This document shows, one piece after another, positions 28,334 to 45,210 of a stretch of DNA of 64,000 nt. The DNA comes from a virus (taxonomy: Duplodnaviria > Caudoviricetes): IMG/VR virus record IMGVR_UViG_3300044611_001018; one strand, given 5' to 3'. Made by a program: the position numbers and the translations under genes. Within the stretch, counting starts at the first letter, position 1. The number at the start of each line of letters is the position of its first letter. The notes under the pieces are model-generated. The model saw nothing but the letters and a program-made list of their open reading frames with translations. It searched no databases and was not told where the DNA came from.

Positions 28334-29446
28334 TTATCCACCAAGAAATAAATTCTTTAATGGATACTTTGTTTTTTTGTTTAGGAGATGATGCCAAACA
28401 TATTTGGCACCACCAACAGCAGTTCCACCATCATGAGATAATGGGTCAACATAAAAATTGACATTTGGAAATGCTTTAATATACTCATAATTATTAACAC
28501 AGTTTAAAAAGTAACCACCAGATAAAACAATGTTATTTGTTTGAACTTTATCAAGTAACATCTGTATTAGTCTAATAGTATGCTCTTTAGTTTCATTCTG
28601 TAGTTTTTTTGCAAGATTTGAATTTTGTTCAAAAGTTGGGTTTTTTAAAAAAGATTCATCAAAATTAGGATTTACATCATCATTTTCATAAATCTTTCTA
28701 ATAGTATTTAATACATTTTTATTGTTAGTATACCATCGATCCGTTTTTTGATCATAATCAAACCAAACATCATTATCAAGTTCACTTGAATTACCATAAG
28801 GTGCTAACCCCATAATCTTACCAGCAGAATGTAGTCTAGTAACTGCAGCAATAGAGTTAAACAACCAACCACAACTTCCAGTTGAAGATAAAATTTTATT
28901 ATCCTCAATTTCAAATGGTGGATCAAAGTAAGTAATACAACTTGGAGTAAAAACTTGACTAATCAATTCACACTTTCCAGTCTCTGAAAAGTAAAACATA
29001 GATTCAGATTCTCTATTGCGTATGTAATCTCTAACATATGCACCACCACCATCTAAAACTAATGCAGCCGCCTCATTAAATTCTGACCCATAAAAAGCAC
29101 TACATGCATGATACAAATGATGTTCCAGATAATAATGCTCTTCTCCGTAAGTTATTGTCCATTGAGATAATTGTTTTTTAACCTCCTCAATCATCTCCTT
29201 ATCAGATTCTTCAGCATAAAAATCTTCTGTATAACTATCACCTCTACAAAAGGATACAAAGATAATGTGGTCAAGATGTTTTGTATACTTTAAAATATCA
29301 GTGATAGAACGAATATAACTTTTTAACGTCCATGGTTCTTCCTTTCTTTTGTTCCATCTATCATCTTCCAAATAATATATGAGTTCTCCATCTTTAAGAA
29401 GAGCAAGAGATGGATGGTGTGATATGTTAACTCCAAGGATGTACAT
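28334..29446 (-). CDS. Carbamoyltransferase (CmcH/NodU/TobZ family), stand-alone Kae1-like half
   Basis: ILGVNISHH...HHLYHACSAFY...DGGG...GKIMGLAPYG...LSGGYFLNC..N...DGGTAVG. Confidence 0.85.
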   Translation of the reverse strand: MYILGVNISHHPSLALLKDGELIYYLEDDRWNKRKEEPWTLKSYIRSITDILKYTKHLDHIIFVSFCRGDSYTEDFYAEESDKEMIEEVKKQLSQWTITYGEEHYYLEHHLYHACSAFYGSEFNEAAALVLDGGGAYVRDYIRNRESESMFYFSETGKCELISQVFTPSCITYFDPPFEIEDNKILSSTGSCGWLFNSIAAVTRLHSAGKIMGLAPYGNSSELDNDVWFDYDQKTDRWYTNNKNVLNTIRKIYENDDVNPNFDESFLKNPTFEQNSNLAKKLQNETKEHTIRLIQMLLDKVQTNNIVLSGGYFLNCVNNYEYIKAFPNVNFYVDPLSHDGGTAVGGAKYVWHHLLNKKTKYPLKNLFLGG

Positions 29447-29448
29447 AA

Positions 29449-30033
29449 TCAGTCATTTAAACAAGTGTATAATTTATTTTCTTCTGGAAGATAAAGATAC
29501 TCTATACGACTATTAGAGATAGTGGTAAGAGCATCATAAAGAGTATGGCAAATTACTTCTCCCGCAAGATTAAACGAAGTATTAAACAACATTGGAATGT
29601 TTGTTCTACTATAAAAGGTTTTAATTAAATTATAGTAGTGATAATTTTGTTCTTCAGTTACAGTTTGAATTCTGCAAGTATCGTCAACATGAAGAACTCC
29701 TGGAATTAATTCTTTTTTTTCTTCTTTAACTGGAATTGCATACATCATAAACGGAGATTCTTTTATAGTCAACATTTCAAACCATTCATGAGCATGTTCA
29801 AGTAAGACTGAGGCAGCAAATGGTCTCCACCACTCTCTTCTTTTTACCGAATTAACAAATTCTTTAGCATCAGAATCTCTAGGGTCATAAAGAATAGACC
29901 TATTACCTAAAGCTCTTGGTCCTGCTTCAGTTTTACCTTGAAAGATTGAAACAATATTTTTTTTATCTATTAGATCTACAATGTCTGAGTACGTAACATT
30001 ATATTGTTCCGTTGTTTTATCATTCCCAACCAT
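29449..30033 (-). CDS. Carbamoyltransferase, stand-alone YrdC-like half
   Basis: GKTEAGPRALGNRSIL...KRREWWRPFA...HVDDTCRIQTV...NTSFNLAGE. Confidence 0.88.
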   Translation of the reverse strand: MVGNDKTTEQYNVTYSDIVDLIDKKNIVSIFQGKTEAGPRALGNRSILYDPRDSDAKEFVNSVKRREWWRPFAASVLLEHAHEWFEMLTIKESPFMMYAIPVKEEKKELIPGVLHVDDTCRIQTVTEEQNYHYYNLIKTFYSRTNIPMLFNTSFNLAGEVICHTLYDALTTISNSRIEYLYLPEENKLYTCLND

Positions 30034-30035
30034 GA

Positions 30036-30278
30036 TTAAATCTTTTTCACATTAGATTTTGGTGCTCTAGATGCCTTCTCAAGAACATCATTCCACCCAG
30101 GGTGCTTTTTAATCAATTGGTCTTTCCATTCACCAACCTCACCAGTAGAAGCACAACCTTCAGACCAATCTCGTCTCCATTCTGGGTTATCTTTATACCA
30201 CTGCATAATATCATTAACACTCATTTCAACGACCTTTTTTTCTCCAGTCTCAACATGAATAATAGGATAAATTGCCAT
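30036..30278 (-). CDS. Conserved hypothetical cyanophage protein
   Basis: MAIYPIIHVETGE...NPEW...GW.DVL. Confidence 0.75.
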   Translation of the reverse strand: MAIYPIIHVETGEKKVVEMSVNDIMQWYKDNPEWRRDWSEGCASTGEVGEWKDQLIKKHPGWNDVLEKASRAPKSNVKKI

Positions 30279-30303
30279 AACTTCTATAATAAAGATAACT
30301 TAT

Positions 30304-31020
30304 TTATTGGATGATAATAGATGGGGCATCAATACATTCTGGACAGTTCTCTGGTTCCCAACCAAGTGCTTTAGCAATATCAGGGAACTGACAGATAAAG
30401 ACGCAACGTGCTGCTTCTGCGATGTCCATATGCTCCTTCTGAGTGCCGTGAGCAGAGCGTAGGTCAATATAATGGATCCATGACCTTACAGAACCCTTCA
30501 TGTAGATTCTGGTGGGGGTTGCGAGTGGAAGCACAAACCTTGCACATTCCTTTGCAACACCTGCATCAAGCATCTTATCGTAAAGGCGTTGTGATTCTTC
30601 AAAGTGCTGTTCAATCATTCCCTCAAACTTTTCCCTTACATGTTCATCCAAATCATTAGTTGAGTTCTGACGATTCTTTTCGTCTTGCCTGCGAAGTTCA
30701 GGAACCTCAGGAAGATCAGTAAGTAGTTTTGTATCTGCGTAACGTTGTGAAAATTCCTGATATGTGAAGGACCTATGACGAAGCACTTGAGCTGCGATAC
30801 CACGAGTCGTATTGATTTCAAGAGTCATATCTGCTTGCTCGAAGATAGACCAATGATTTTGCTTAATACAATAACGAAGAAGTCCAGCAGCAGTATCAAA
30901 TTTAAGTTGATTACTTGGATTGCTTACACGAGCATTGTATGTAATTACTTCCTGTGCAGACTTTCCAGCAAGTTCTCCTGCACCTTGAGTAACAGCAATC
31001 AATTTAACAATATTAGACAT
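30304..31020 (-). CDS. thyX: Flavin-dependent thymidylate synthase
   Basis: ARVS...HWSIFE...RHRSFTYQEFSQRY...ECARFVLP...RSWIHYIDLR. Confidence 0.97.
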   Translation of the reverse strand: MSNIVKLIAVTQGAGELAGKSAQEVITYNARVSNPSNQLKFDTAAGLLRYCIKQNHWSIFEQADMTLEINTTRGIAAQVLRHRSFTYQEFSQRYADTKLLTDLPEVPELRRQDEKNRQNSTNDLDEHVREKFEGMIEQHFEESQRLYDKMLDAGVAKECARFVLPLATPTRIYMKGSVRSWIHYIDLRSAHGTQKEHMDIAEAARCVFICQFPDIAKALGWEPENCPECIDAPSIIIQ

Positions 31021-31590
31021 TTAACTCTCCAAATAATTTTTAAAAATTTCTAAAGCAGAATCCCAGTGTATAAACTGTCCCGCTTGGTTGACTGGAACAA
31101 AGCATAACGTCCATCTACCATGCGGTGTGGGATTATTTGTACCGTGCAAAACACCCACGTTAACTAAACTAGGTCGATTTGTATTTGCCTCATAAAGAAG
31201 TTCAGAATCTTCCTCATTTGCCCAAAGATTATCATGGTATTCATCGGTGCTACCCTGATAACCATTCAGTTGCATTCTTTTAGTTTTATCAGACTTCCAC
31301 CATTGTATCACACCTTCTTCAGGTCCCCAAGACATATTAATCTTGGCATGATTTGTATAGTGACCATGATCGGTATGAATCGGAATCTTAGAGAATGGTG
31401 GGGTATAAAATACTTCTTTAAGATGAAGAGTCAATCCAAGGTCAACAAAAAATTCTTCCATTGGATAGAATGGATAATCATTAATATAAAAATGTCTGAT
31501 TTGATTACCCTGTTCCTTAAATAACGGAAGAGGACCAATAGTGAAAGGTAAGTTAAGGTATCTATGATAGGTATTAATCGCAGTATCCAT
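31021..31590 (-). CDS. Fe/2OG-like cupin protein
   Basis: IHTD...LVNVGVLHG...RWTL facial-triad pattern; start set at MDTAIN. Confidence 0.55.
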   Translation of the reverse strand: MDTAINTYHRYLNLPFTIGPLPLFKEQGNQIRHFYINDYPFYPMEEFFVDLGLTLHLKEVFYTPPFSKIPIHTDHGHYTNHAKINMSWGPEEGVIQWWKSDKTKRMQLNGYQGSTDEYHDNLWANEEDSELLYEANTNRPSLVNVGVLHGTNNPTPHGRWTLCFVPVNQAGQFIHWDSALEIFKNYLES

Positions 31591-31738
31591 CGTCATCCTC
31601 AAAGACTTCATCGTAATCGGTTATACTATAATCATATTCTTGTACATAACTTTCTGTATCTGAAAGAACTTCAGATTCTATTTCTTCAATAAGTTGTTTA
31701 AGAGTATTAATTAATAGCTTTAGCTTTTCTCTATCCAT
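31574..31738 (-). CDS. Small acidic hypothetical protein
   Basis: MDREKLKLLINTLK...EIESEVLSD...YDEVFEDDDG. Confidence 0.7.
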   Translation of the reverse strand: MDREKLKLLINTLKQLIEEIESEVLSDTESYVQEYDYSITDYDEVFEDDDGYCD

Positions 31739-31761
31739 TTTTATTAACCTCAACAAAGGTA

Positions 31762-31790
31762 ATTATAGATAAAAAAAAGAGGGGAGTCAA
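31762..31790 (-). promoter_or_regulatory. Sigma70-type promoter built into the terminator hairpin
   Basis: TTGACT (31790-85), 17 nt, TATAAT (31767-62). Confidence 0.65.
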
Positions 31791-31802
31791 GTCCCCTCTT
31801 TA
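31771..31802. terminator. Intrinsic terminator (hairpin with A- and T-tracts)
   Basis: AAAAAAAAGAGGGGA-GTCAAG-TCCCCTCTTTT. Confidence 0.8.
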
Positions 31803-31804
31803 TA

Positions 31805-31906
31805 TTAAGCAATTTGTGGTTGTTTTGCCATATTTAACTGTGCAGCTTTAAGAAGACTTTCCTTCTTTGCTTTTTTCTTGAGGTAACGAACGAAGTAAGT
31901 ATTCAT
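31805..31906 (-). CDS. 33-aa basic peptide
   Basis: MNTYFVRYLKKKAKKESLLKAAQLNMAKQPQIA*; ATGA overlap with the upstream ORF; GGAGG SD. Confidence 0.65.
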   Translation of the reverse strand: MNTYFVRYLKKKAKKESLLKAAQLNMAKQPQIA

Positions 31907-32070
31907 TTTACATTACCTCCCTTTGACTTTTCCATAGAGAATTTGTTTCCATTTTCATCCACCCAGAACATTGTTCCGCGATAGATTTCTACATGAGGTT
32001 CTCTTTTCAAAGTTTGATTTGGGCGGTCGTTGGTGTCATATTCGACACCACGATATACGACTTTAGACAT
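31903..32070 (-). CDS. DUF4278-like small protein (55 aa)
   Basis: MSKVVYRGVEYDT...EIYRGT; two YRG motifs; AAGGAG SD. Confidence 0.8.
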   Translation of the reverse strand: MSKVVYRGVEYDTNDRPNQTLKREPHVEIYRGTMFWVDENGNKFSMEKSKGGNVK

Positions 32071-32101
32071 TAGGGTTCTCCTTAATTTTGAGGCTAAAGA
32101 G

Positions 32102-32270
32102 CGTTCCTTCAGTCGGCTTTTGCGTCTATTTTACACTCTTTGGGAGAGATTTGTTTAATCTCCCAAATTAAATCATTCTTAATCTGTTTAGGAATGTCTT
32201 GTTTATTAACTCTCCCAGCAATTAACTGTGCCTGTAAGCATGAAAGAATGAGTGCTTCCATAGATGAACG
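32102..32270 (-). ncRNA. Glutamine-riboswitch-like aptamer 2 with a 130-nt ORF-containing P2 loop
   Basis: CGTTCA-TCTAT[130 nt]ATAGA-CGCAAAAGCCGACTGAAGGAACG; P1 CGTTC/GAACG and P2 TCTAT/ATAGA. Confidence 0.65.
32109..32261 (-). CDS. 50-aa ORF nested in riboswitch aptamer 2
   Basis: MEALILSCLQAQLIAGRVNKQDIPKQIKNDLIWEIKQISPKECKIDAKAD*. Confidence 0.6.
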   Translation of the reverse strand: MEALILSCLQAQLIAGRVNKQDIPKQIKNDLIWEIKQISPKECKIDAKAD

Positions 32271-32273
32271 TTC

Positions 32274-32313
32274 CGTTCCGAGTCGGCTTACTTCCGTCCC
32301 ATAGGGATGAACG
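32274..32313 (-). ncRNA. Glutamine-riboswitch-like aptamer 1 (glnA-motif-like)
   Basis: CGTTCA-TCCC-TAT-GGGA-CGGAAGTA-AGCCGACT-CGGAACG; P1 CGTTC/GAACG, P2 hairpin, GGAAGUA junction. Confidence 0.75.
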
Positions 32314-32320
32314 TAAGGTC

Positions 32321-32349
32321 ATTATAGACCTATTGCATTATATAGGCAA
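32321..32349 (-). promoter_or_regulatory. Sigma70-type promoter starting just upstream of aptamer 1
   Basis: TTGCCT (32349-44), 17 nt, TATAAT (32326-21). Confidence 0.7.
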
Positions 32350-32356
32350 GTCTTTT

Positions 32357-32372
32357 TGTAAAATGTAATACA
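32357..32372. promoter_or_regulatory. Candidate NtcA box
   Basis: TGTA-AAATGTAA-TACA matches TGTA-N8-TACA. Confidence 0.4.
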
Positions 32373-32374
32373 TT

Positions 32375-32701
32375 TTAATCTCTTTGTCTCCAATCGTCAG
32401 GCTTATCTCTATCTTCCGAAAAGAAATCTACAATATCATCAACACTTTCAAATCTACGAATACCAAAACGTTCGTGACCCAATCCACCAATGTCAAGTTG
32501 ATTTAAAAAATCATCCATATCACCCTTCTTCATGTCGGGATTTTCTGCTGTTCTTCTTGCTTGGCGGAGCATTGTACCTGCGGTCCTATTTGCCTTGGCA
32601 AGTTTCTCTGCCCAAATCATATCATCTAAAGTGACTTCTTGATGTTTAGCAATTTTGTCGCAGATTGCTTCCAAACGAAGTCGATATTGTGTAGAGAGCA
32701 T
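32375..32701 (-). CDS. Conserved hypothetical cyanophage protein
   Basis: MLSTQYRLRLEAIC...DMIWAEKLAKAN...DDFLNQLD. Confidence 0.8.
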   Translation of the reverse strand: MLSTQYRLRLEAICDKIAKHQEVTLDDMIWAEKLAKANRTAGTMLRQARRTAENPDMKKGDMDDFLNQLDIGGLGHERFGIRRFESVDDIVDFFSEDRDKPDDWRQRD

Positions 32702-32736
32702 ATGTAGTCTCCATATAGGGTTATTTAGTATTCAAA

Positions 32737-32940
32737 TCAATATGGAAGAGATTTTAATCCATCCAAAACTTCTTGAAATTTTTCTGCGCGAGTCTTGTGA
32801 TGTTCAACATTCTTCTCCAGAACATCCACAATGTCATCTAAAATAGTGTCTGCCGAAGCATCAGTATTAAAATACTGTTGAATTGCTTCAGCAAGGTATC
32901 TATGCCTATTCCATTCCATACTATAAGGTTTATATGTCAT
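32737..32940 (-). CDS. Hypothetical protein
   Basis: 67-aa ORF downstream of a consensus promoter. Confidence 0.7.
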   Translation of the reverse strand: MTYKPYSMEWNRHRYLAEAIQQYFNTDASADTILDDIVDVLEKNVEHHKTRAEKFQEVLDGLKSLPY

Positions 32941-32962
32941 GATAAGAAAGATATATTTTTCA

Positions 32963-32991
32963 ATTATAGAAGGAAAAATTTATTTTGTCAA
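32963..32991 (-). promoter_or_regulatory. Consensus sigma70-type promoter
   Basis: TTGACA (32991-86), 17 nt, TATAAT (32968-63). Confidence 0.8.
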
Positions 32992-33473
32992 CCAATAGTA
33001 TCAAAGAAAAAAACTTGGGTGAGTCTACCAGTTTCAACAGAATCTCCAAACCCAGGAATCATACTTCTATGATATAGAGTTCCGCGATATAATATTAATC
33101 TATTATATACGTTACCCATCATTGTCACTAATTTTTTTTCTTCATTATAAATTCCTGTTCCAGAATTTATTGGAGCACCTGGAGTTAAAAATAATACTCC
33201 TGCCCATTCAACATCATCTTTATGAATCCAAGTGGAATCATCTCTTAAACAAAGTTGAAATCTAAAACAATCTCTATCTCTCCTAAATTCAATTTTTTTT
33301 CCTATTACTGGTTCTATTTTTGCACGCACCATTTCCTGGTAGTCATGGTCTGCTGCATCTGTACGACTACCAGGAAATGTTCCAGTATTTTTAAATGGCA
33401 AACAAATAACAGAAGACCTTACCAAATCTGGTTTATCTAAAAAATTATCAATTATAATAGTATCAATTTTCAT
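32988..33473 (-). CDS. Fe/2OG oxygenase (DUF6445-like)
   Basis: IIDNF...FPG.R...WIHKD...WAGVLFLTP...YNRLILY....H......G..RLTQVFF. Confidence 0.75.
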   Translation of the reverse strand: MKIDTIIIDNFLDKPDLVRSSVICLPFKNTGTFPGSRTDAADHDYQEMVRAKIEPVIGKKIEFRRDRDCFRFQLCLRDDSTWIHKDDVEWAGVLFLTPGAPINSGTGIYNEEKKLVTMMGNVYNRLILYRGTLYHRSMIPGFGDSVETGRLTQVFFFDTIG

Positions 33474-33601
33474 TTATGATTATACTTATCGGGATTCTTC
33501 TCTGAATCGTAAATAAAAAATGCAAATGGGAACAATAATGAAATTCCCAAAATAGTCCCAACTACAATAGGACCAAATGCATCAACAATTTTAGCAATCA
33601 T
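33470..33601 (-). CDS. Small membrane protein (43 aa)
   Basis: MIAKIVDAFGPIVVGTILGISLLFPFAFFIYDSEKNPDKYNHK*; 4-nt overlaps with both neighbours. Confidence 0.55.
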   Translation of the reverse strand: MIAKIVDAFGPIVVGTILGISLLFPFAFFIYDSEKNPDKYNHK

Positions 33602-33924
33602 CTTTCTATGTAACTAAGTGTATGATTCGTAGCATATAATTGTTCGATTATCATATCACACCCAATCTTTGGGTTACAATCGCCGCATGTAAATAGATCT
33701 ACTGCAGCCTCTCCCTTTTCTGGCCAAGTATGAATACTAATATGACTTTCAGACAGCAAAGTTAGTACAGTAACTCCTTGAGGATCAAATTTTTTAAAAA
33801 TTGTATTAACTACAGTAGCGCCGCTAATACTAGCTGCTTCTTCTAATAACTTTATTAGGTATTCTTGATCGTCTAACAATACAAAAGAACACCCATACAA
33901 ATTTAATAAGTAATGTTTCCCCAT
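33598..33924 (-). CDS. speD: S-adenosylmethionine decarboxylase proenzyme
   Basis: MGKH...F.PQGVT...LSESHISIHTWPE.G.AAVDLFTCG. Confidence 0.95.
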   Translation of the reverse strand: MGKHYLLNLYGCSFVLLDDQEYLIKLLEEAASISGATVVNTIFKKFDPQGVTVLTLLSESHISIHTWPEKGEAAVDLFTCGDCNPKIGCDMIIEQLYATNHTLSYIER

Positions 33925-33950
33925 CTCTACTTTAAATATTTGACATTTTT

Positions 33951-34685
33951 TTATTTAGAATTGTTGTACAAGACATAATCTTGACTGTATACATCTATAA
34001 ATTTTTGATGCCTTAAACAATAGTCATTAAAAATCTTACAACATAATTCATAGTTTTTAATTTTTAAATACTCACCATCCATTAAATTTTTTTTCTTTAT
34101 TGGAACTTCGCAACCAATAAAATCAGATATTTTTTGTTCAAAAAACTCATCGATTCTAATAAGATTAATGTCAAAGTTTATTTTTGATGGTTGAAAGCAG
34201 TAATCTATAAATCTAAACTGTGGCAAAGTATGCCCATCAAATATAAATTTTTTGTTTCTTAACTCTAATAATATATCTCTAGAGTTTGGTGTAGAAAGAT
34301 AAACCCCAACCTCGCTAAGAAATTGATTGAATCCAGAAATCCATCTATCCTTTGGATGCCTAGTAACAACTAAAATTTTATATTCTTTTTTATATTCTTC
34401 TGGTATTTCTAAATCAAATTGACTCTGAACATTTGGTACTTGGTACACAGGTTCAAAGTCAATTAAATTCTTTAAAGAAGTTGATGCATTTTTTGATATT
34501 GGTATGTATAGAATTTTATATCTTTTAGATATGTAAAATGCATCAAATTCAACTGTCTCTATACCATCTGGTGTATAATCTAAAAAATATTTTTTAGATA
34601 CACATTTATCTATTTGTTCCCTATACTGGTCCCAATCAAAATTATAACAATCAGATGAGTTCATCCGAATCGCCACCATATTCAT
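33951..34685 (-). CDS. Sulfotransferase family 2-like protein
   Basis: YIPISKNASTS (5'-PSB-like), VTRHPKDRWISGF (3'-PB-like), HTLPQ. Confidence 0.7.
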   Translation of the reverse strand: MNMVAIRMNSSDCYNFDWDQYREQIDKCVSKKYFLDYTPDGIETVEFDAFYISKRYKILYIPISKNASTSLKNLIDFEPVYQVPNVQSQFDLEIPEEYKKEYKILVVTRHPKDRWISGFNQFLSEVGVYLSTPNSRDILLELRNKKFIFDGHTLPQFRFIDYCFQPSKINFDINLIRIDEFFEQKISDFIGCEVPIKKKNLMDGEYLKIKNYELCCKIFNDYCLRHQKFIDVYSQDYVLYNNSK

Positions 34686-34866
34686 CCAGAAGATTTTTTA
34701 CTACATCTTCTGTACCATCAATAGTTTTTACTTTGTATAAAGAAGATCTCATATATTTTTTAATCTTCTTATATTCTTTTAGAAGTTTATTAACTTCATT
34801 ATCATTAATAACAACTACTGCCTTACCATTTTTAGGTTTATCCGCGCCAAATCCACTAGACATCAC
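34651..34866 (-). CDS. Hypothetical protein
   Basis: 71 aa, GFG...YKKIKKYM pattern. Confidence 0.65.
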   Translation of the reverse strand: MMSSGFGADKPKNGKAVVVINDNEVNKLLKEYKKIKKYMRSSLYKVKTIDGTEDVVKNLLDEYGGDSDELI

Positions 34867-35147
34867 TCCCCCCTTTTTTTACTCTTAGTTTCTTTTGGAG
34901 TTATATTCCAAAGTTTAGGGTTAACTCTTCCTTCCGATTGTTTATACCACTTTAATCCTTCTCTATACAGATCCCAATAATAATCAAAAATGTCTATCTT
35001 TTTATTTGCGATAACAATATCATAACAAAGTGAATCATCAATACAATAATGCACTAGATATGCATTGTAAGGTAGATTTCTATCATTAGATAATTCAGGA
35101 TCACAATTTTGTTGAAGAATTTTGATATTCAAGAGCGACCTCCCCAT
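34863..35147 (-). CDS. Hypothetical protein
   Basis: 94 aa, CDP....LPYNAYLV.Y...DIFD.YWD.Y...G..NPKLW. Confidence 0.7.
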   Translation of the reverse strand: MGRSLLNIKILQQNCDPELSNDRNLPYNAYLVHYCIDDSLCYDIVIANKKIDIFDYYWDLYREGLKWYKQSEGRVNPKLWNITPKETKSKKRGE

Positions 35148-36127: not shown

Positions 36128-36482
36128 GACTATATCTCCAGGCATCTTGAAGAATACCATAAAGATATTCTTTTATTTTCCTTGCTTGTGGTTTTGGTAT
36201 ATGACCATACGCCTCACGAAGAAGTTTATGTTCTGGATCTTGACCTCCTTTTAAATATTCATCTAACTCTAAAATTAGACTGTTAATGCTTTCTGCTGTT
36301 TTGCTGTCAATAAATTGCTCAGCATGACGACGCTTTGCATTATTTGTTTTGAGGTATTGATAGAAATTTAATATAAACTTTCCTTGAAAAGCAAAGTCTA
36401 CTGCCTTCTCCACGTCGTAATGGAGTGTGACAACTTCTTCTTCCATGAAAACGAATGCTCCCATTTGTAAATTATATATCAA
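36087..36482 (-). CDS. Hypothetical protein (start possibly 36446)
   Basis: VEKAVD.AF...L.FYQYLK...LREAYGHIPKPQARKIK. Confidence 0.75.
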   Translation of the reverse strand: MIYNLQMGAFVFMEEEVVTLHYDVEKAVDFAFQGKFILNFYQYLKTNNAKRRHAEQFIDSKTAESINSLILELDEYLKGGQDPEHKLLREAYGHIPKPQARKIKEYLYGILQDAWRYSHDKRPGRRKKSNK

Positions 36483-38098
36483 AAAGTAAAATTAAACAAC
36501 TGTTTCGTTTCGTAAAACCAAAGATAATCGAGAGAAGAAGAATTTAAAGTCCTAAATGCATCTTGTGGGGTTTCGACTAAAGGTTCTCCTGCCAAATTAA
36601 AACTGGTATTTAATAGGATACCATGCCCTGTCAAGTTTTTAAATTCATTTAAAATAGAATGTAAATGCCCAGAATTTACTGTCTGTATTCTACAAGTATT
36701 ATCGACATGTGTAACTCCTGGAATTAAATTTGTCTTGACAGGAAAGCAAACTGTCATGTGTGGATTTGGAATCACATTGTCAAAATAGAGATGCGCGTCC
36801 TCTTCAAGAACTATAGCAGCAAATGGTCGATACCACTCTCTATTTTTAATTTTATTAACAATATCTTTAGCATTTGGATTTAGTGCATTAAACAGTATAG
36901 AACGGTTCCCCAATGCCCTCTGACCCGCTTCTGCAAGATGATTATATACTGCAACAGACTTATTATTATAAAGTAGTCTTGCCACCTCTTTTTCATCAGC
37001 AAATGCACCTTGGTATTGTGATACATCATGGGTTAAACCATGGAAAAAAGTATCTTTAGATGGTAGTATTCTAGAGTCTCCAGACAATTGTCTATAAGAA
37101 TACATAGAAGCTCCTATGCTTAATCCACTGTCATCACACATAGGATCAAAATAAAATTTAACGTCAGGAAATCTAATGGTCAATTCATAATTGGTAATAA
37201 TATTCATACCATAACCACCAGTAATACAAACTTTTTTTATTCCAGTTTTATCTACATGTTTTTTAACCAGATTACAAACTTGTTCTTGACATTGACGTTG
37301 AACTTCGTAACAATAGTTTGAAAAAAATTGATAATTATCTTTTGTTATCTCAACCTTATAGTTTGCATCATCATTAAAATCCAGCATATAATCTAATAAT
37401 TCTGGATAATTCTTAAAATATTTTTTAATTGCTGCATCTGCCGATATTCTTTTACCAAAAAACTTTAATTTTTCTATCGCAACTCCATAGGAAGACAATC
37501 CCATTGCTTTACCACAATCATCAATTGTTTGTCCTATCGCAAGTGCAGCACTATTGTAAAGATTTCCTATATTAATTTCATCAGTATGATGTTTACAAAT
37601 ATGTCTACATCCATTTACAACTTTATCAAATCTTTTTTGTAAGTTTGCAGTCCAATATCTTTTATATAGAGGAGTGAATTTACATGGATATTCTGCAACA
37701 TATACAGAATCACATTCAAAAACTTCTGGGTCAATTGGATATCCACCTGCAGAATCAACACATATAATTAAAGACTTTTCAAATCCACTATTATAAAATG
37801 CACCAGATGCATGAAATAAATGATGGTGATACTTTGGATTTATGAATTTAATTTTAGGATTTGATAATTTAATTAATGAATCTTTTTTATCTTTATCCTC
37901 TTGACTTTCTCCAGATGAAAAAATAATATAATCAATATCGTGCAAAAAATTTTTTGAGATAATATCAAAAATAAATTTGTGCCCACCAGAGTGTTTCTTC
38001 TTATTGTACCTCTCTTCCTTAAAGTAATATTCAATTACACCATCCTTTATGACAGTTGCAGATGCATCATGTCCAGAAAAAATGGTTAGAACTTTCAT
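36479..38098 (-). CDS. Carbamoyltransferase, full-length (CmcH/NodU family)
   Basis: GHDAS...KEER...HHLFHA...GKAMGLSSYG...EAGQRALGNRS...NTSFNLAGEP. Confidence 0.9.
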   Translation of the reverse strand: MKVLTIFSGHDASATVIKDGVIEYYFKEERYNKKKHSGGHKFIFDIISKNFLHDIDYIIFSSGESQEDKDKKDSLIKLSNPKIKFINPKYHHHLFHASGAFYNSGFEKSLIICVDSAGGYPIDPEVFECDSVYVAEYPCKFTPLYKRYWTANLQKRFDKVVNGCRHICKHHTDEINIGNLYNSAALAIGQTIDDCGKAMGLSSYGVAIEKLKFFGKRISADAAIKKYFKNYPELLDYMLDFNDDANYKVEITKDNYQFFSNYCYEVQRQCQEQVCNLVKKHVDKTGIKKVCITGGYGMNIITNYELTIRFPDVKFYFDPMCDDSGLSIGASMYSYRQLSGDSRILPSKDTFFHGLTHDVSQYQGAFADEKEVARLLYNNKSVAVYNHLAEAGQRALGNRSILFNALNPNAKDIVNKIKNREWYRPFAAIVLEEDAHLYFDNVIPNPHMTVCFPVKTNLIPGVTHVDNTCRIQTVNSGHLHSILNEFKNLTGHGILLNTSFNLAGEPLVETPQDAFRTLNSSSLDYLWFYETKQLFNFTF

Positions 38099-38127
38099 AA
38101 TAAATACAAGATATTAGTGTTGTGATA

Positions 38128-38772: not shown

Positions 38773-39008
38773 TTAATAATATTATTTTCTTTTAAATATC
38801 TTGCAGTATCTGTACATCCACCAAGGTGTTTATCATCCATAATTACTTGAGGAAAAGTTGATCCTGAACCAAACTCAGCATAAAATTCCTCACGATTAAA
38901 ATCTCTACCAAGTTTATATACTACATGTTGAAGTTCTGCTACTTTAAGTAGTTGTTCAATTTTGTTGCAGTATGGGCAACCGTCCTTAGAATATACTGTA
39001 AATTTCAT
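38769..39008 (-). CDS. nrdC: Glutaredoxin
   Basis: YSKDGCPYC...TFPQV...LGGC. Confidence 0.93.
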   Translation of the reverse strand: MKFTVYSKDGCPYCNKIEQLLKVAELQHVVYKLGRDFNREEFYAEFGSGSTFPQVIMDDKHLGGCTDTARYLKENNIIN

Positions 39009-39010
39009 TA

Positions 39011-39667
39011 TTACCTATGAGTTGTTTTTCCTAATGCGACAATGTTTACATTCGTTGAAGTAGACTTGACAAAAATAATCTCCCCTGCGCCCAACTTAAT
39101 ATCGTCTTGACAGAAAAAGTGTCCAGGTTCTACTCTTTGATTATACACCAAATAATGATTGGAGCCAATAGTAGTTCCAATACCAACACTTACTTCAACA
39201 TAATCTGGAGAAGTGTTTGTAATATACAGATTAGCGTCAGTTTCTACCATCGATACTGGTAGATTAAACACAGTCTGACCTGCACCTATTTTTAAACTTG
39301 TTGATGGACTGAATGCTGATATAATTCCACAAACAGTGGTTGTTAAACCAACTTCAGATCCACGAAAACTAAATTTTACACCTGGAGAATCTGCACGTAC
39401 CACAACAGATTCACCATTCTTTAAAAATATTCCATCAGATATAAATCTATCACCAGTTGGTATTAAATGATTATATATAATGTAATCTGATATTGCTAGG
39501 TCGTTTATATTAGCGGTTCCCAGAACTGCAACCCTAATTTTTACTGGAACAGAACTCATATTAACAGCGTAAACTTTACCTTCTACAAAATTCGATGAAG
39601 GTGATGTGTAAAGTATATGAGCAAAATTATCTGTGGTTGGGTATGATGCTAGAGATCCAAACGCCAT
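39011..39667 (+). CDS. Putative virion protein with two tandem ~100-aa beta-sandwich repeats
   Basis: Internal duplication (..N.S..PVKIRVAV...DYIIYN.. versus ..N.S...VEVSVG...HYLVYN..). Confidence 0.55.
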
Positions 39668-39718
39668 GGATATACTTTTAGACTTTTTTATGTTATTATT
39701 TATTATAATAGGAAAATT

Positions 39719-40531
39719 ATGATCATACTTACTGGTTCGTCAGGATTTATTGGAAGTCATTTTGCAAATAAGTTAAATACTGGTGAAGATATACTTTTAA
39801 TTGATCAAGAAGATTCTTGGCGTCTGTTTAAAGATTTTGATGATTGGAAAAATGTCAGTCTAATCCTTCATCAAGGGGCAATTTCATCAACTACAGAAAA
39901 GGATTTACAAAAACTTTGGCACTATAATGTAGCCTTTTCATGCGCCCTTTTAAACAAAGCAATTGAATATGAGATTCCAGTGAAGTATGCTTCGTCAGCA
40001 TCAGTTTATGGCAATCAAAGTATTCATCAAACAAAAGGATCAATCAATCCTTTAAATCAATATGCCATTTCAAAACTACAGGTTGATTATACAGTCTTAG
40101 ATAACATAGAAAAATTTCCTCTTGTGCAGGGATTTAGGTACTTTAATGTATATGGTGATGGAGAAGACCACAAAGGTAACCAAGCAAGTCCTGTAAGTAA
40201 ATTTACAAAGGAAGTTAAAGAATCTGGTCAATTGAATCTTTTTGAAGGTTCTGATCGCTTCCTGAGAGACTTTGTGTGCGTTGATGACGTTGTTAATATT
40301 GTTCTCCATAACAACGCTGGAAGCGGCATCTACGACCTTGGAACAGGGTCTCCAGTATCATTTAAACATGTTGCAGAGTTAGTTGCAAAAAAAGAGAATG
40401 GCACTATTAATACCATTCCCTTTCCAGATCATTTAAAAGGCAAATACCAAACATATACATGTGCAGATATGAAGTGGATTGGTAATTATAAATTTAAAAG
40501 TATTGAAGAATATATTAATCTCCCAGAATAA
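39719..40531 (+). CDS. hldD: ADP-L-glycero-D-manno-heptose 6-epimerase
   Basis: TGSSGFIGS, HQGAISSTTE, YASSASVYG, YAISK, RYFNVYG..E.HKG..AS, RDFV.V.DV. Confidence 0.88.
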   Translation: MIILTGSSGFIGSHFANKLNTGEDILLIDQEDSWRLFKDFDDWKNVSLILHQGAISSTTEKDLQKLWHYNVAFSCALLNKAIEYEIPVKYASSASVYGNQSIHQTKGSINPLNQYAISKLQVDYTVLDNIEKFPLVQGFRYFNVYGDGEDHKGNQASPVSKFTKEVKESGQLNLFEGSDRFLRDFVCVDDVVNIVLHNNAGSGIYDLGTGSPVSFKHVAELVAKKENGTINTIPFPDHLKGKYQTYTCADMKWIGNYKFKSIEEYINLPE

Positions 40532-40868
40532 TCCTGTAACTATCTTCTTCAAAATGCTCCGTAGAAAATTCAAATAATTCAGAATCTTCTAGAGCAATCA
40601 TCTGATGCTTAAGACCCACAGAAACATGAAATGCATCTCCTGGTTCTAATATTTTCATGTTTGCTTTTGCTAAATCATCATCCCATCCATACCACAAATA
40701 TATTTTGCCACTCTGTAAATAAAATGTTTCTTCTTTAATCTTATGATAATGCCAAGAACATCTCTTATTTCTTTCAAAAAATAAAAGTTTACCACAATAC
40801 CTTTCATTATTGACTATCCATTTTTCATATCCCCATCCTTTGGGGACAAACTTATTTAAAGAAGTCAT
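40515..40868 (-). CDS. Cupin (sugar isomerase-like)
   Basis: VPKGWGYEKW...CGKLL...SWHYH..KEETFY...H...ALEDS..FE.ST.H. Confidence 0.8.
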   Translation of the reverse strand: MTSLNKFVPKGWGYEKWIVNNERYCGKLLFFERNKRCSWHYHKIKEETFYLQSGKIYLWYGWDDDLAKANMKILEPGDAFHVSVGLKHQMIALEDSELFEFSTEHFEEDSYRIILGD

Positions 40869-41184
40869 CTGAATTTATTGCTTTATCATCTATATAGTAG
40901 TCCGCAGATGGCTTACCCATAATAAGATAATGATATTTGCATCCCCAAATTCTTAATTGAAGTTCAGTAAAGTCTTTCCACCTTGCAGAAGCAAGTTTAG
41001 CGTCATCTTGATATGTTCCCATACCTCTTGCAGTAAAATATTTGATTATATGACCTTCATCATATAATTTGTTTATCCTTTCAATATTTTCTATTATAGG
41101 AACAGATGACTCATATTTACAAGTTTTGCATATCCCATTTTGTTTAGCAATTACACCATCAATATCAATACAATATGTTTTCAT
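40852..41184 (-). CDS. HAD phosphatase (capsule-biosynthesis-phosphatase type)
   Basis: YCIDIDGVI...FTARG...GKP.ADYYIDDKA; start set at MKTYC. Confidence 0.8.
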   Translation of the reverse strand: MKTYCIDIDGVIAKQNGICKTCKYESSVPIIENIERINKLYDEGHIIKYFTARGMGTYQDDAKLASARWKDFTELQLRIWGCKYHYLIMGKPSADYYIDDKAINSDDFFK

Positions 41185-41203
41185 TTTAATATACCTCCAA
41201 GTA

Positions 41204-42280
41204 TTATATGTTTGAGTGATATGTAAATTGAGCATATCCAAGAGATGTCCCTTCATCTCCACACATTGGTTCTATGTATAATTCAACATCTTTTGGAAGA
41301 ATATTTAGATATTCGTAGTTAGCAACACAATTTAAAGCACACCCACCACTCAAGACTATTTTTTTTATTCCAGTAAACTGATAAGATTTTAAAATTAAAT
41401 TTGACATATATGATTCAAAATCCTTTTGCATTCTATATGCTAAATTTGCTGCTATTTTAAATTTATTTTTATTGTTCATCCATATACTAGCATCATTTGC
41501 ACCAAAGTCAATATAATCATATGGAATTAGATTGGCACCAAATGTAGACTTATAGAATAATTTAGAATTTATTGTGCCATCTAAATTTAAAAAAGATTTA
41601 ATATTGGGATCATATTCACCATATGACGATAATCCCATCAATTTTCCAGAATTTTGAGATCCAAGACCAAGATGAGATGCAACTGCAGGATATGCCATGC
41701 CAATACCCATATCCCACTCACCATGATGCTCGGAATTATTCTTTGATATAGTACTATATTTTAAACTAGTACCACAATGTATTAAATTAAATTTATCTGG
41801 ATACTCTACAATATATACAGATTCAAATTCATGGTCGTCCAAATTACCAAATCCAGTTGTAGTTTCATTTCCAAGACCATCAACTACAATTACTACAGCT
41901 TTATCAAATCCAGAATTATAAAATCCAGTGCAGGCATGTAAAATATGATGCTTATCAGATATAGACATCATATTAGTCAATTGATTTAAATTATTATAAC
42001 CAATTTTGTTGGTCATAACTTTTGTAATAACGTTCCTATAAAATGCCCACATATCGTCAACAATATGTTGATACTTTTTTGAATAGTAGGATAGAGAACA
42101 AAAACAATAATTATCATATTCAAAAAATTTATGGGATAAAAATTCAAATACTTTTGAAGGCCACCCATCTTTTTTTATCCTACTAAGTCTCTCTTCACTT
42201 AAATGTGTATCAATTTTTCCAGTACCATCAACTATAGTAATTGAAGCATCATGACTCAGATTAATTCCAATGTAATTCAT
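41204..42280 (-). CDS. Carbamoyltransferase Kae1-like half with no adjacent partner
   Basis: GINLSHDAS...SEERLSRIK.D...HHILHA..GFY...DGLG...GKLMGLSSYG...LSGGCALNCVAN...DEGTSLG, then stop. Confidence 0.85.
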   Translation of the reverse strand: MNYIGINLSHDASITIVDGTGKIDTHLSEERLSRIKKDGWPSKVFEFLSHKFFEYDNYCFCSLSYYSKKYQHIVDDMWAFYRNVITKVMTNKIGYNNLNQLTNMMSISDKHHILHACTGFYNSGFDKAVVIVVDGLGNETTTGFGNLDDHEFESVYIVEYPDKFNLIHCGTSLKYSTISKNNSEHHGEWDMGIGMAYPAVASHLGLGSQNSGKLMGLSSYGEYDPNIKSFLNLDGTINSKLFYKSTFGANLIPYDYIDFGANDASIWMNNKNKFKIAANLAYRMQKDFESYMSNLILKSYQFTGIKKIVLSGGCALNCVANYEYLNILPKDVELYIEPMCGDEGTSLGYAQFTYHSNI

Positions 42281-43050
42281 AATCCCTCAATATCAGATTC
42301 AGTAAGAACGTAGCATCCATAATTTTGAACTGCTATTGCAGATGCTTTGTTTGCAATAACAATAGCAGAAGTAATATCTTGATATCTCAAATAAGCATAA
42401 GTCAATGCAGATAAAAAAGTATCTCCAGCACCAACTACATCAAATACATTTACTTTTTCCGTAAAATAAAGGTTATCCATATATGATGCTCCATTTTCAC
42501 CAAGAGTGATAATAAGATTTTCTTTATCTGGTTTTTTTAAAAGTCTACTATATTCCTTTTGATTAATTTTAAAAAATACATTTGGATAACTAAACAACGA
42601 GGTTTTTTTAGTATCAATAAAAACTGGTCCAGAAAAATTTTGGCAAAAAACCTCCAGATCATTAGTTGTTAAATACCCCTTATCATAATCAGATATTACA
42701 ACAGCATCATATTGCATGTGAAGAAATGCAGATTTAACTTCAGATACTCTAAGTGGATCAACTTTATCTTCATCATCAATCCTAAGTAATTGTTGATTGC
42801 TATTTTTATCTACTATTCGCCTTTTAATAATACGATTTTTATTTGTAATATGATTTACAAATACTCCAAAAGATTCTAAATTTTTTTTGACATTTGCAGA
42901 CATACCTAAAGAGGTTTCTGTTCTCTCATAACTTAGAACAGGAACAGGAGCTTCTGGACTAATTCTATCTACTGTTCCATAAACATATTCATCCTCACAG
43001 GTTTCCCCGATCAATAATACTTTGAATTGTTTTTGTTGTTGAATATCCAT
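42277..43050 (-). CDS. hldA: Heptose-7-phosphate kinase (HldE/RfaE domain I, PfkB family)
   Basis: G..DRISPEAPVPV...G...NV..N...ISDYDKG...DVVGAGDTF. Confidence 0.85.
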   Translation of the reverse strand: MDIQQQKQFKVLLIGETCEDEYVYGTVDRISPEAPVPVLSYERTETSLGMSANVKKNLESFGVFVNHITNKNRIIKRRIVDKNSNQQLLRIDDEDKVDPLRVSEVKSAFLHMQYDAVVISDYDKGYLTTNDLEVFCQNFSGPVFIDTKKTSLFSYPNVFFKINQKEYSRLLKKPDKENLIITLGENGASYMDNLYFTEKVNVFDVVGAGDTFLSALTYAYLRYQDITSAIVIANKASAIAVQNYGCYVLTESDIEGL

Positions 43051-43402
43051 GAATTCTATCGAAAAATTTTAATTGTTTTGCATATTCGCTTCCGATTACT
43101 TTTTTATTTTTATAATCGCTGCCTACAATCATTATATCGGGATTAAATCCTTTTATCAAATTTTCCAACTCTTCATCAGTAGAAAACAATTCAACTTGGT
43201 CAACAGGTTTTAACATCCTTAAAAAGAATCTGCGTTCATCTTGATTATGTATTGGTCTGAATTGACCTTTTTTTTCCTTTACTCTTTCATCAGTGTCTAT
43301 GGCAACGATCAAATAATCACCATAGGACTTTGCAAAGTTTAATAATTGCAAGTGTCCCAGGTGTAAAATATCAAAAGTTCCATTAACAAAGATTTTTTTC
43401 AT
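42995..43402 (-). CDS. hldC: Heptose-1-phosphate adenylyltransferase (HldE/RfaE domain II)
   Basis: NGTFDILHLGH..LL..AK..GD.LIVAI.TD..V...KG..RPI...GSDY...STT. Confidence 0.85.
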   Translation of the reverse strand: MKKIFVNGTFDILHLGHLQLLNFAKSYGDYLIVAIDTDERVKEKKGQFRPIHNQDERRFFLRMLKPVDQVELFSTDEELENLIKGFNPDIMIVGSDYKNKKVIGSEYAKQLKFFDRIHGYSTTKTIQSIIDRGNL

Positions 43403-43404
43403 AA

Positions 43405-45210
43405 TCAATCAGTATTTTTTACTACAATTAACCTATTATATTCTGGAAGATATAGGTATTCAATTTTAGAATTTGCAAGTGTGCGAAGAGCATCATCTAA
43501 AGTTTCAACCAAAGGTTCTCCACCTAAATTAAATGATGTATTAAAAATTATTGGGCATCCAGTTTGATTATAAAATTCATTAATTAATCCATAATAATGG
43601 AGATTAACATCTTCAGTAACTGTTTGGATTCTACAAGTACCATCAACATGAATAATTGCAGGTATTTTTTCTTCAATTCCATCCTGACACTTAACAGCAT
43701 ACATCATAAATGGAGTATCTTCCATTCCACGAAGATCAAACCAATCATGAACATGCTCTTTAAGAATTGACCCAGCAAATGGGCGGAAGTATTCTCTTCG
43801 TTTTACAAGATTTACATGGTCTTTACCATTTAGGTCTCTTGGATCATATAGAATAGATCGATTACCCAGTGCTCTAGGTCCCGCTTCCGATTTCCCTTGG
43901 AACAAAGCAACAATATTTTTTTCAGTAATTAATTTTACAACATCACTATACTGAACTCCTTCAATTATTTTAGTAGCACCATATTTGTTACAGGTGTCTT
44001 CAATTTCTTCATCAGAATAATTATATTCTGGACCATAATATAGATTAGTAATTCTATTCATAATATTCATATTACCATTTATTTGATGATGAATTAAAAG
44101 AGCTGCTCCAATTGCAGTTCCAGCATCATTACTGACAGGTTCAACAAAAAGATTTATACCATCTTTTTTAAGTTTATCAAGATACCAGTAATTAGCAACA
44201 CAATTTAATCCATATCCACCAGAAAGAACAACATTTTTATTACCAGAAATCTCAACGGCTTTATAAATCAAATCAAGAACCATTTGTTGAGATTCTACCT
44301 GAATGGCATATGCCAAATCTCTTCTATTTTGAAGTTTAGTTAAATCCTCACAATCTTTGGGGGTGGTTAGAAATTCATATCGACCTTCATTAACAACAGC
44401 ACCATTCGGATAAGTTGGAACTATAACATTTCTATCAGCAGTTTTCCAAGACCCACCACCACCATCAGTATAAATTTTTGGTACATTTTTATTTGGTTTT
44501 CCGTATGGGAATAAACCCATAGTTTTACCAGCTTCAATAGGTGCCCATCCACAATACTGAGTTACTGCTTCATATGCCTTTGTAATTCCAGCACTCTCAT
44601 CAAGAATTAATTCATGAGTACCTTCTTCACCCTCACCGTCGCTGGGAAATTCTTTAATTTTAGCAGACCCCCAAGGACCTCTTCCCGCTTGGTGTTTATA
44701 TAATGTTTTAAAATTTGCAGGATACCCACAAGAAAATATTGACTCCAACTCCCAAGTCATTTCTAATTCATTTTTTCTACCAAAGCTCATCGGGATGAAT
44801 GTTCCAGCACCATCAACAACTAAAGACACAGCACTATCAAATCCAGATCTGTAAAAAGCACAGGCAGCATGTAATTTATGATGGGTTCTACTCAAATCAA
44901 TTACTTGAGGATGATTATATGGATCTTCATTTCTACTAATCAGTCCAAGCTTTCTTGCAAGTCCCGTATAGATATCATCTCCAGTAAAATCAATTCTTCC
45001 AGAATCTCCAAGTGGTTGAGTATGTGCAATTACAAGATAGTCAAGTTTATCAGTATATTCTAATATCTTTACCATAGAGGCAAGAGGTCCACCATCATAC
45101 TTATGCCTGGATAATCTCTCTTCTTCTATAGAAATAACCAGTTCACCATCTTTAAGTAAACAAATGCCAGAGTTATGCCCTCTGGCAACAGCAGCAATCC
45201 ATTGTGTCAT
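43405..45210 (-). CDS. Carbamoyltransferase, full-length
   Basis: GHNSG...EEERLSR.KYD...HHKLHA...DGAG...GKTMGL.PYG...GPRALGNRS...RPFAGS...NTSFNLGGEP. Confidence 0.93.
   Translation of the reverse strand: MTQWIAAVARGHNSGICLLKDGELVISIEEERLSRHKYDGGPLASMVKILEYTDKLDYLVIAHTQPLGDSGRIDFTGDDIYTGLARKLGLISRNEDPYNHPQVIDLSRTHHKLHAACAFYRSGFDSAVSLVVDGAGTFIPMSFGRKNELEMTWELESIFSCGYPANFKTLYKHQAGRGPWGSAKIKEFPSDGEGEEGTHELILDESAGITKAYEAVTQYCGWAPIEAGKTMGLFPYGKPNKNVPKIYTDGGGGSWKTADRNVIVPTYPNGAVVNEGRYEFLTTPKDCEDLTKLQNRRDLAYAIQVESQQMVLDLIYKAVEISGNKNVVLSGGYGLNCVANYWYLDKLKKDGINLFVEPVSNDAGTAIGAALLIHHQINGNMNIMNRITNLYYGPEYNYSDEEIEDTCNKYGATKIIEGVQYSDVVKLITEKNIVALFQGKSEAGPRALGNRSILYDPRDLNGKDHVNLVKRREYFRPFAGSILKEHVHDWFDLRGMEDTPFMMYAVKCQDGIEEKIPAIIHVDGTCRIQTVTEDVNLHYYGLINEFYNQTGCPIIFNTSFNLGGEPLVETLDDALRTLANSKIEYLYLPEYNRLIVVKNTD

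Follow-up and report, generated by a model that had tools for sequence, protein, structure and literature searches.

What use a phage has for several O-carbamoyltransferases, and which molecules it decorates with them, is the question raised by a 64,000-nucleotide stretch of the Caudoviricetes record IMGVR_UViG_3300044611_001018 (hereafter the window), which represents the minus strand of positions 33091-97090 (G000:C1:33091-97090) of a 125.8-kb IMG/VR contig estimated to be approximately 61% complete. The window encodes PhoH, ThyX, a bilin reductase, an S-adenosylmethionine (SAM) decarboxylase, many 2-oxoglutarate (2OG)-Fe(II) oxygenases and long fibre genes, and its best DNA and protein matches are found in Synechococcus and Prochlorococcus myoviruses, on the basis of which it is attributed to a T4-like cyanomyovirus. 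An initial annotation, made from the letters of the sequence, had noted four carbamoyltransferase loci within 17 kb and had proposed that they act on several distinct acceptors, either positions on a glycan or DNA bases.

The answer that we favour, with moderate confidence, is that this phage encodes five class III (TobZ/NodU-type) O-carbamoyltransferases, which would share one donor chemistry and differ in the hydroxyl group that they modify, most likely on sugars from glycan pathways that the phage itself encodes, with the two heptose-linked enzymes acting on a glycan of a virion (fibre) protein.

Five carbamoyltransferase loci with intact catalytic residues

The four loci within 17 kb are borne out by Pfam (Table 1), and a search of the whole contig added a fifth one outside the window. 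All five Kae1-like N domains match PF02543 with 50-115 bits against a cut-off of 24, and the four YrdC-like C domains match PF16861 with 171-201 bits against a cut-off of 27; the latter domain is absent from the split-N and orphan-N proteins. Both genes described earlier as full length contain the two domains, and the motifs to which attention had been drawn are present as well, HH..H in every N domain and G..MGL..YG in all four N domains of the window. In the alignment, the catalytic His and the His-His-Asp-Asp metal ligands are invariant in all five N domains, residues H10, H111, H115, D134 and D342 of the orphan N being equivalent to H14, H114, H118, D137 and D338 of TobZ, and the 601-aa protein matches NovN, GdmN and TobZ with E-values from 1e-46 to 1e-52. 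The fused order, N then C, is confined to the 601-, 539- and 474-aa proteins. All characterised class III enzymes are fused two-domain proteins with this order (PMC9633730); judged from their domains, the split pair and the orphan N are class III members of an undescribed architecture.

With five loci, the contig exceeds each of the five complete cyanophage genomes that were scanned, among which S-SSM7 has the highest number (four). The fifth copy is directly preceded by a radical SAM gene that overlaps its start (G000:C1:109074-111324), and a second radical SAM gene is located 4 kb upstream.

The mechanism by which a YrdC-like and then a Kae1-like module act in carbamoyl transfer is known for TobZ and GdmN. 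By analogy, the YrdC-like module of the phage proteins would convert carbamoyl phosphate and ATP to carbamoyl-AMP, and the metal-containing Kae1-like module would pass the carbamoyl group to the acceptor. The modules would be interchangeable, and appear here as three fused enzymes, one two-gene enzyme and one free Kae1-like transferase.

Table 1. Carbamoyltransferase genes and features of their surroundings (positions in the window, unless a contig position is given).
Feature	Coordinates	Strand	Evidence and remarks
Split-C, YrdC-like Carbam_trans_C alone, 194 aa	29449..30033	-	PF16861, E 1.7e-58; upstream gene of the split pair; predicted carbamoyl-AMP synthase
Split-N, Kae1-like Carbam_trans_N alone, 370 aa	28334..29446	-	PF02543, E 2.2e-21; downstream gene of the split pair; predicted acceptor-specific transferase
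539-aa full-length carbamoyltransferase	36479..38098	-	PF02543 and PF16861; divergent from pebS
Orphan N, Kae1-like transferase alone, 358 aa	41204..42280	-	PF02543, E 4.5e-20, no C domain; between heptose kinase and HAD phosphatase
601-aa full-length carbamoyltransferase, cyanophage T4-GC 303 type	43405..45210	-	PF02543 and PF16861
Fifth carbamoyltransferase copy, 474 aa, N and C	G000:C1:109900-111324		Outside the window, same contig; found by whole-contig search
GT9-like heptosyltransferase-fold protein, T4-GC 302	45221..46345	-	Always directly upstream of the 601-aa enzyme
Heptose-1-phosphate adenylyltransferase-like (HldE domain II)	42995..43408	-	TIGR02199, E 4e-32, below curated cut-off
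Heptose-7-phosphate kinase-like (HldE domain I, PfkB)	42277..43050	-	TIGR02198, E 2e-46, below curated cut-off; PfkB
Small HAD-type phosphatase, probable GmhB-like step	40852..41262	-	phrog_1238 and polynucleotide-kinase phosphatase PHROG; TIGR01689, E 8e-7
Cupin, T4-GC 307	40515..40868	-	Cupin_2, E 3e-7; weak Lyx_isomer match
ADP-glyceromanno-heptose 6-epimerase-like SDR (HldD-like)	39719..40531	+	TIGR02197, E 6e-67, below curated cut-off; Epimerase; divergent from the ten-gene string
T4-type late-promoter-like box TATAAATA	48295..48302	-	Consensus match, 38 nt upstream of the first gene of the string
thyX	30304..31020	-	Thy1, E 5e-43; 270 nt from the split pair
phoH	27552-28397		PhoH, E 1e-40; with thyX brackets a variable island holding the split pair

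Divergence and orthology of the copies

Pairwise identity among the copies amounts to 22-33% for the N domains and 40-61% for the C domains, and in maximum-likelihood trees every copy falls into a clade of its own, common to other phage genera and supported at 100/99 or better. The 601-aa enzyme groups with T4-GC 303 of Sf-FS3, S-SSM7, P-SSM2 and S-CAM1 (100/99), the orphan N with SfFS3_107 and S-SSM7_123 (100/99), the split N with proteins of S-RIM44 and S-SCSM1 (100/100), the 539-aa protein with SSCSM2R_235 of phage S-SCSM2R (45% identity), and the fifth copy with a protein of Ralstonia phage RsoM2USA (43% identity). On the evidence of these trees, the five copies are old paralogues rather than recent duplicates. 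Conserved activating (C) halves combined with diverged transferase (N) halves are what would be expected of enzymes that share one donor and use several acceptors, and the divergence of the N domains, together with the separate orthologue clades, supports the earlier suggestion of several distinct acceptors.

SSCSM2R_235 stands at the head of a glycan cluster of S-SCSM2R that comprises nucleoside diphosphate (NDP)-sugar epimerases, GT10, GT11 and a UDP-glucose dehydrogenase, and it is preceded by an annotated wcaG RNA motif. Rfam, run at gathering thresholds over the whole window, detected three tRNAs only, and thus no wcaG motif. The GenBank name of SSCSM2R_235 (L048:7001-8593), '2OG-Fe(II) oxygenase', is wrong, since the protein is a full-length carbamoyltransferase. 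The pairing of pebS with a carbamoyltransferase, as seen at the 539-aa locus, is also present on a Logan contig (L134). Downstream of the 539-aa gene are located a sulfotransferase-like gene (Sulfotransfer_2, E 5e-5) and a DUF6433 gene (33951-34685 and 35129-35710, both on the minus strand), accompanied by speD and another 2OG oxygenase; the combination of sulfation and carbamoylation recalls the tailoring of Nod factors.

A predicted heptose module behind the tail-fibre genes

Two of the loci are embedded in a string of ten minus-strand genes (48256 to 40515) whose intergenic distances lie between -59 and +40 nt, in the order fibre-assembly-like gene, gene of unknown function, 2OG oxygenase, T4-GC 302, 601-aa enzyme, HldE-II-like gene, HldE-I-like gene, orphan N, HAD phosphatase and cupin. 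The initial annotation had counted three carbamoyltransferase loci as flanking the heptose genes; two are indeed interleaved with them, whereas the 539-aa gene lies 1.6 kb off, past a fibre-like gene, a glutaredoxin gene and pebS. Upstream of the string are two fibre genes of 1272 and 1321 aa. The late-type box TATAAATA that precedes it occurs in the window as three exact copies, each of which lies between genes and upstream of a gene on the minus strand.

For T4-GC 302, Pfam gave no match and a profile search against PDB sequences gave nothing meaningful. Its nearest Atlas clusters are named ADP-heptose:LPS heptosyltransferase, one of them with PF01075 in 22% of its members, and a Foldseek search with its AlphaFold model placed GT9 structures at the top (3tov, WaaF, WaaC; best E 7e-7) and TibC lower; the protein O-fucosyltransferase POFUT1 was also among the fold matches. 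The HAD gene goes by the name 'phosphoheptose isomerase' among its relatives and in PHROGs, yet it is matched by phosphatase models and not by SIS/GmhA; TIGR01689 describes a capsule biosynthesis phosphatase, and the translation carries DIDGV and GKP...DD motifs. It probably provides a GmhB-like step, and its true start is likely the ATG at 41184. The Atlas clusters of the cupin have Lyx_isomer or MannoseP_isomer in 12-17% of their members, and this protein, as a lead only, may be the sugar-phosphate isomerase that is otherwise missing from the pathway.

The string T4-GC 302, carbamoyltransferase, adenylyltransferase, kinase, 'isomerase' and cupin, together with the divergent epimerase, recurs in Sf-FS3, S-SSM7, P-SSM2, S-CAM1 and the Logan contig L134, where the module adjoins fibre or neck genes; on L134 the kinase and HAD phosphatase genes likewise have the orthologue of the orphan N between them. 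The 601-aa gene and the genes around it belong to the 'LPS gene' (lipopolysaccharide) set T4-GC 302-308, and are orthologous and syntenic with genes 307-313 of P-SSM2, 120-133 of S-SSM7 and 216-222 of S-CAM1. Sullivan et al. (2010) listed the carbamoyltransferase among the genes enriched in cyanophages (T4-GC 303/721/1350), with three copies in one phage in their table, and described co-occurring 'LPS genes', including T4-GC 304, 305, 307 and 308, whose use was unknown (PMC3037559). That paper does not discuss split, permuted or N-only forms of the enzyme, or the identification of the 'isomerase' as a HAD protein.

Three tandem paralogues of 261-264 aa (phrog_4205; 48367-50759, minus strand) separate the long fibre genes from the heptose operon. 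They contain 9-10% cysteine, share a tail at the C terminus that is rich in Gly and Cys and ends in LVKITF, LVKITY or a similar sequence, and have a TATAAATA box of their own at 50779. They are candidate substrates or fibre-tip proteins.

Where the carbamoyl group would be placed

The glycan reading of the earlier note gains support from context at several loci, namely the ADP-heptose genes and the GT9-like gene at two of them, the glycan clusters next to orthologues in S-SCSM2R and S-SCSM1, and the late-type box by the fibre genes. Because the 601-aa enzyme and the orphan N belong to an operon with a late-type box, genes for ADP-heptose synthesis and a GT9-like gene, directly behind the tail-fibre and Cys-rich genes, both would carbamoylate a glycan that contains heptose and is most likely carried by a virion protein associated with the fibres. 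The other three enzymes (the 539-aa protein, the split pair and the fifth copy) would serve other sugar pathways.

In function, the 601-aa and orphan-N loci have their closest precedent in WapO, likened by description, a family member that is genetically coupled to GT9 heptosyltransferases; it differs in being bacterial, in acting on the LPS core and in having a putative function. A 7-O-carbamoyl heptose is present in the LPS core of Pseudomonas and is credited to this putative carbamoyltransferase (PA5005) (PMC8005017).

A serious alternative, if an unlikely one, is that the same chemistry is directed at the host envelope (LPS, exopolysaccharide or S-layer glycan), for example to block superinfection or the adsorption of progeny to debris. 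The name 'LPS genes' for the cluster goes back to Sullivan et al. (2010), two heptosyltransferases of LPS synthesis, WaaC and WaaF, are among the top GT9 fold matches of T4-GC 302, the sole known carbamoyl-heptose is that of an LPS core, and the split pair lies with thyX and phoH behind a sigma-70-like promoter rather than a late-type box. Against the envelope as target speak the position of the heptose module inside or right behind the tail-fibre block in six phages, the late-type box that heads the operon in the window, and the protein-acting enzymes TibC and POFUT1 among the fold matches. The LPS of marine picocyanobacteria is reported to be heptose-free, which counts against this target as well.

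Less probable still is that the products are soluble small molecules, such as carbamoylated nucleotide-sugars or aminoglycoside- or nucleoside-like metabolites, rather than glycans bound to macromolecules. All biochemically characterised class III enzymes do act on small molecules (tobramycin, novobiocin, ansamycins and Nod factors). A radical SAM gene accompanies the fifth copy, similar to a pairing in Pelagibacter phage Mosig, which has an aminotransferase and a methyltransferase in addition, and the place of the orphan N between a kinase and a phosphatase gene would be consistent with a heptose-phosphate or ADP-heptose intermediate as its substrate. However, the 601-aa enzyme is accompanied in every case by a gene of glycosyltransferase fold, and this coupling implies that the product is transferred to an acceptor; genes for export or resistance were not seen in the cluster.

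Several points weigh against the reading that we prefer. The matches to heptose-pathway models all remain under the NCBIfam curated cut-offs, and no bona fide sedoheptulose-7-phosphate isomerase was found. The model of T4-GC 302 is confident in its C-terminal half only, with TM-scores of 0.3-0.4. The late box is a bare consensus match, of which the window holds fewer copies than chance predicts. A close syntenic relative (G001) lacks the orphan N, which is hence dispensable. Carbamoyl-AMP is labile and in TobZ is passed between two sites inside one protein, so that its supply in trans is an assumption. Finally, the acceptors of the cyanophage members are assigned from sequence and genomic context.

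The thyX-phoH island and the DNA-base reading

The split pair of the initial annotation does consist of two genes with one domain each, but the C-domain gene is the upstream one, which makes it a permuted two-gene form and not the result of a nonsense break. The TGA stop of the C gene is followed, after 2 nt, by the ATG of the N gene. The pair is not a broken fused gene, because the order C then N cannot be produced by one stop or frameshift in a fused N-C gene.

The thyX and phoH genes also bracket such genes in S-RIM44, in S-SCSM1 and in 25 of the 42 evaluable IMG/VR loci with relatives of the split N. S-RIM44 has the order thyX, C gene, N gene, phoH, and the interval of S-SCSM1 contains two C-N pairs followed by an NDP-sugar epimerase; RefSeq names the separate halves in both phages 'Nol-like carbamoyltransferase'. 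Among the 42 loci, an N gene alone between thyX and phoH was found 18 times, N-C as two open reading frames in different frames 12 times, C-N 8 times and N-C-(thyX)-N 5 times, and a fused gene in none. Based on these gene arrangements, unfused forms are the rule in the split-N subfamily.

A single sigma-70-like promoter (an 11-of-12 match) next to a strong terminator at approximately 31790, with the thyX-phoH island downstream, may drive this island; the sigma-70 scan of the window gave 96 sites versus 105 expected by chance. Adjacent to it, downstream of the terminator (31801-31776), the gene-poor segment 31800-32530 is the sole variable part of 28000-47600 among contigs from lake metagenomes, with a summed depth up to approximately 9-fold higher, and Rfam returned no hit there. 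Records of the exact split-C protein (29449-30033) come from 57 contigs. As the longest of these measures 258,262 bases, the complete genome probably has roughly double the length of the present contig, and it may encode further carbamoyltransferase copies.

The location of one locus next to thyX had been taken as a possible sign of action on DNA bases, and the proposal that one or more copies, especially the thyX-side pair, carbamoylate a hydroxymethylated pyrimidine in the phage DNA can call upon a phage-encoded family member that does so in vitro. This 5-hydroxymethylcytosine (5hmC) carbamoyltransferase (Yang et al. 2021, eLife; PMC8670742) co-occurs with a dCMP hydroxymethylase of the ThyA type and with a dCMP deaminase. 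It belongs to the same family; its hydroxymethylase and deaminase partners are absent here. No gene of the ThyA/dCMP-hydroxymethylase family (PF00303) was detected on the contig, itself only ~61% complete, or in the five complete cyanophage genomes carrying orthologues, whereas two control phages with a DNA-modification context carry two ThyA-family genes each. These two, Acinetobacter phage MD-2021a and Bacteroides phage BF503P1, were chosen by context as proxies, the assayed 5hmC enzyme itself being outside the tree, and their enzymes, 22-30% identical to the proteins of the window, form a clade separate from all 24 other sequences (100/99). ThyX was considered as the hydroxymethylase partner and rejected, as the thyX-phoH interval holds many different contents, including the two split pairs and the sugar epimerase of S-SCSM1; since the content of the island varies freely, adjacency to thyX reflects location and not function. 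A precedent for the sugar reading comes from Yang et al. (PMC8670742), who also found carbamoyltransferases with flanking glycosyltransferases on unmodified contigs. Both the DNA-base reading and the significance attached to thyX are thus not upheld, and we consider modification of phage DNA very improbable.

Stand-alone halves as a regular architecture

The catalytic His and all four metal ligands are likewise invariant in another 48 distinct N proteins of the stand-alone type from IMG/VR, and in the stand-alone C proteins 43 positions are invariant across 25 sequences (that of the window and 24 homologues), including E.G.RAL.NRS, HVD.T.R.QT and NTSFN. Compared with a relative of 84% identity (L051), the ratio of nonsynonymous to synonymous substitution rates (dN/dS) is 0.15 for split-C, 0.155 for split-N, 0.08 for thyX and 0.03 for phoH. 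Homologues of the stand-alone C number 5273 clusters at 90% identity with lengths of 106-340 aa, nearly all C-domain only among the matches listed. The 150 nearest representatives of 50% clusters of the orphan N comprise 83 proteins of 300-430 aa, of which 80 are without C-domain motifs, and 57 fused ones; the five closest (42-46% identity) are all N-only, and the orphan 'half' of the initial annotation, while correctly seen as an N domain only, is a conserved stand-alone form instead of a remnant. A search of viral contigs with the orphan N returned two distant loci only. Between 2016 and 2024, 20 metagenome runs from lakes or other fresh waters contain the stretch covered by the window verbatim, and contigs identical to it (lake runs of 2016, 2020, 2023 and 2024, which may include the source sample of the window itself) contain all four carbamoyltransferase loci and the split junction with zero differences.

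That the split pair and the orphan N are functionless, decaying remnants of fused genes, as might be thought from the fused state of all characterised family members (PMC9633730) and from the lack of the orphan N in one syntenic relative, has a negligible probability and, on the conservation data, is effectively refuted by a gene order that a fused N-C gene could not reach by one mutation, a dN/dS of 0.15 in both halves, catalytic residues invariant in 50 stand-alone N proteins, the conserved blocks of the C proteins, the thousands of stand-alone homologues and a sequence unchanged across lake samples over these years.

If the free Kae1-like transferases are active, the orphan N would draw its carbamoyl-AMP from another YrdC module, either a free one or that of a fused neighbour, in the way TsaD uses the product of TsaC/Sua5. 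S-SSM7 and Sf-FS3 possess an orthologue of the orphan N and no free C domain, and long contigs with a lone split-type N encode fused enzymes elsewhere. A complex prediction for the 601-aa enzyme with the orphan N gave a score of 0.01, which speaks neither for nor against their binding. On several IMG/VR contigs (L095-L098, L104-L105) the arrangements N-C-thyX-N-phoH and N-C-N are found, in which one YrdC-like gene stands between two different Kae1-like genes. From the gene order, these arrangements are the clearest hint of one activating subunit serving two transferases.

Comparison with known systems

TobZ, NovN and GdmN (structures 3VEN, 9S2T and 7VYJ) have the same Kae1-like N domain with a His-His-Asp-Asp site and the same YrdC-like C domain. 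They differ in being fused and in acting on antibiotics, whereas two of the five phage loci are unfused, one of these in reversed order, identity is approximately 25-35%, and the context is that of a phage glycan. The stand-alone halves are reminiscent of the synthesis of N6-threonylcarbamoyladenosine (t6A), in which the YrdC-fold protein TsaC/Sua5 makes threonylcarbamoyl-AMP and a separate Kae1-fold metalloprotein (TsaD/Kae1/Qri7) transfers it. This likeness extends to the proposed division of labour only: the t6A models stay below cut-off here (TsaD with 16.6 versus 24.8 bits, Sua5_yciO_yrdC with 21.4 versus 25.1), the donor is presumably a plain carbamoyl group, and the acceptor presumably a hydroxyl group and not A37 of a tRNA. 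HypF, in which a YrdC-like module precedes the Kae1-like one, resembles the split pair in its order; it is a fused protein with additional acylphosphatase and zinc-finger domains, and HypF models score below cut-off for the proteins of the window.

Implications for aquatic phages

Of the 'host-like' genes of cyanomyoviruses that lack an explanation, those for carbamoyltransferases belong to the commonest, and 126 of the 136 matching phage records are from cyanophages or marine viruses. Since both the family and its multi-copy state were already known in cyanophages, it is the modular architecture that is modestly new; in the literature searched, we found nothing on unfused, permuted or N-only forms as the rule of a subfamily, on their catalytic intactness and selection, or on a two-component reading. 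The tempting link to DNA hypermodification is removed as unsupported.

More tentatively, the class III enzymes of aquatic phages as a whole may form a mix-and-match two-component system, in which one YrdC-like carbamoyl-AMP synthase, whether free or fused, would serve several free Kae1-like transferases (as N-C-N triads, lone N genes and C-N pairs) and place several carbamoyl marks per phage, in this case on a phage-made heptose glycan of its own fibre proteins. If the stand-alone halves do exchange carbamoyl-AMP, they would represent a natural two-component version of a class of antibiotic-tailoring enzymes, and swapping the transferase half would be a simple evolutionary route to new acceptor specificities. 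If the heptose module does decorate fibre proteins, this would be a new kind of virion decoration, with a bearing on host recognition and on how these very abundant viruses of aquatic habitats are grazed or recognised in an immune-like manner.

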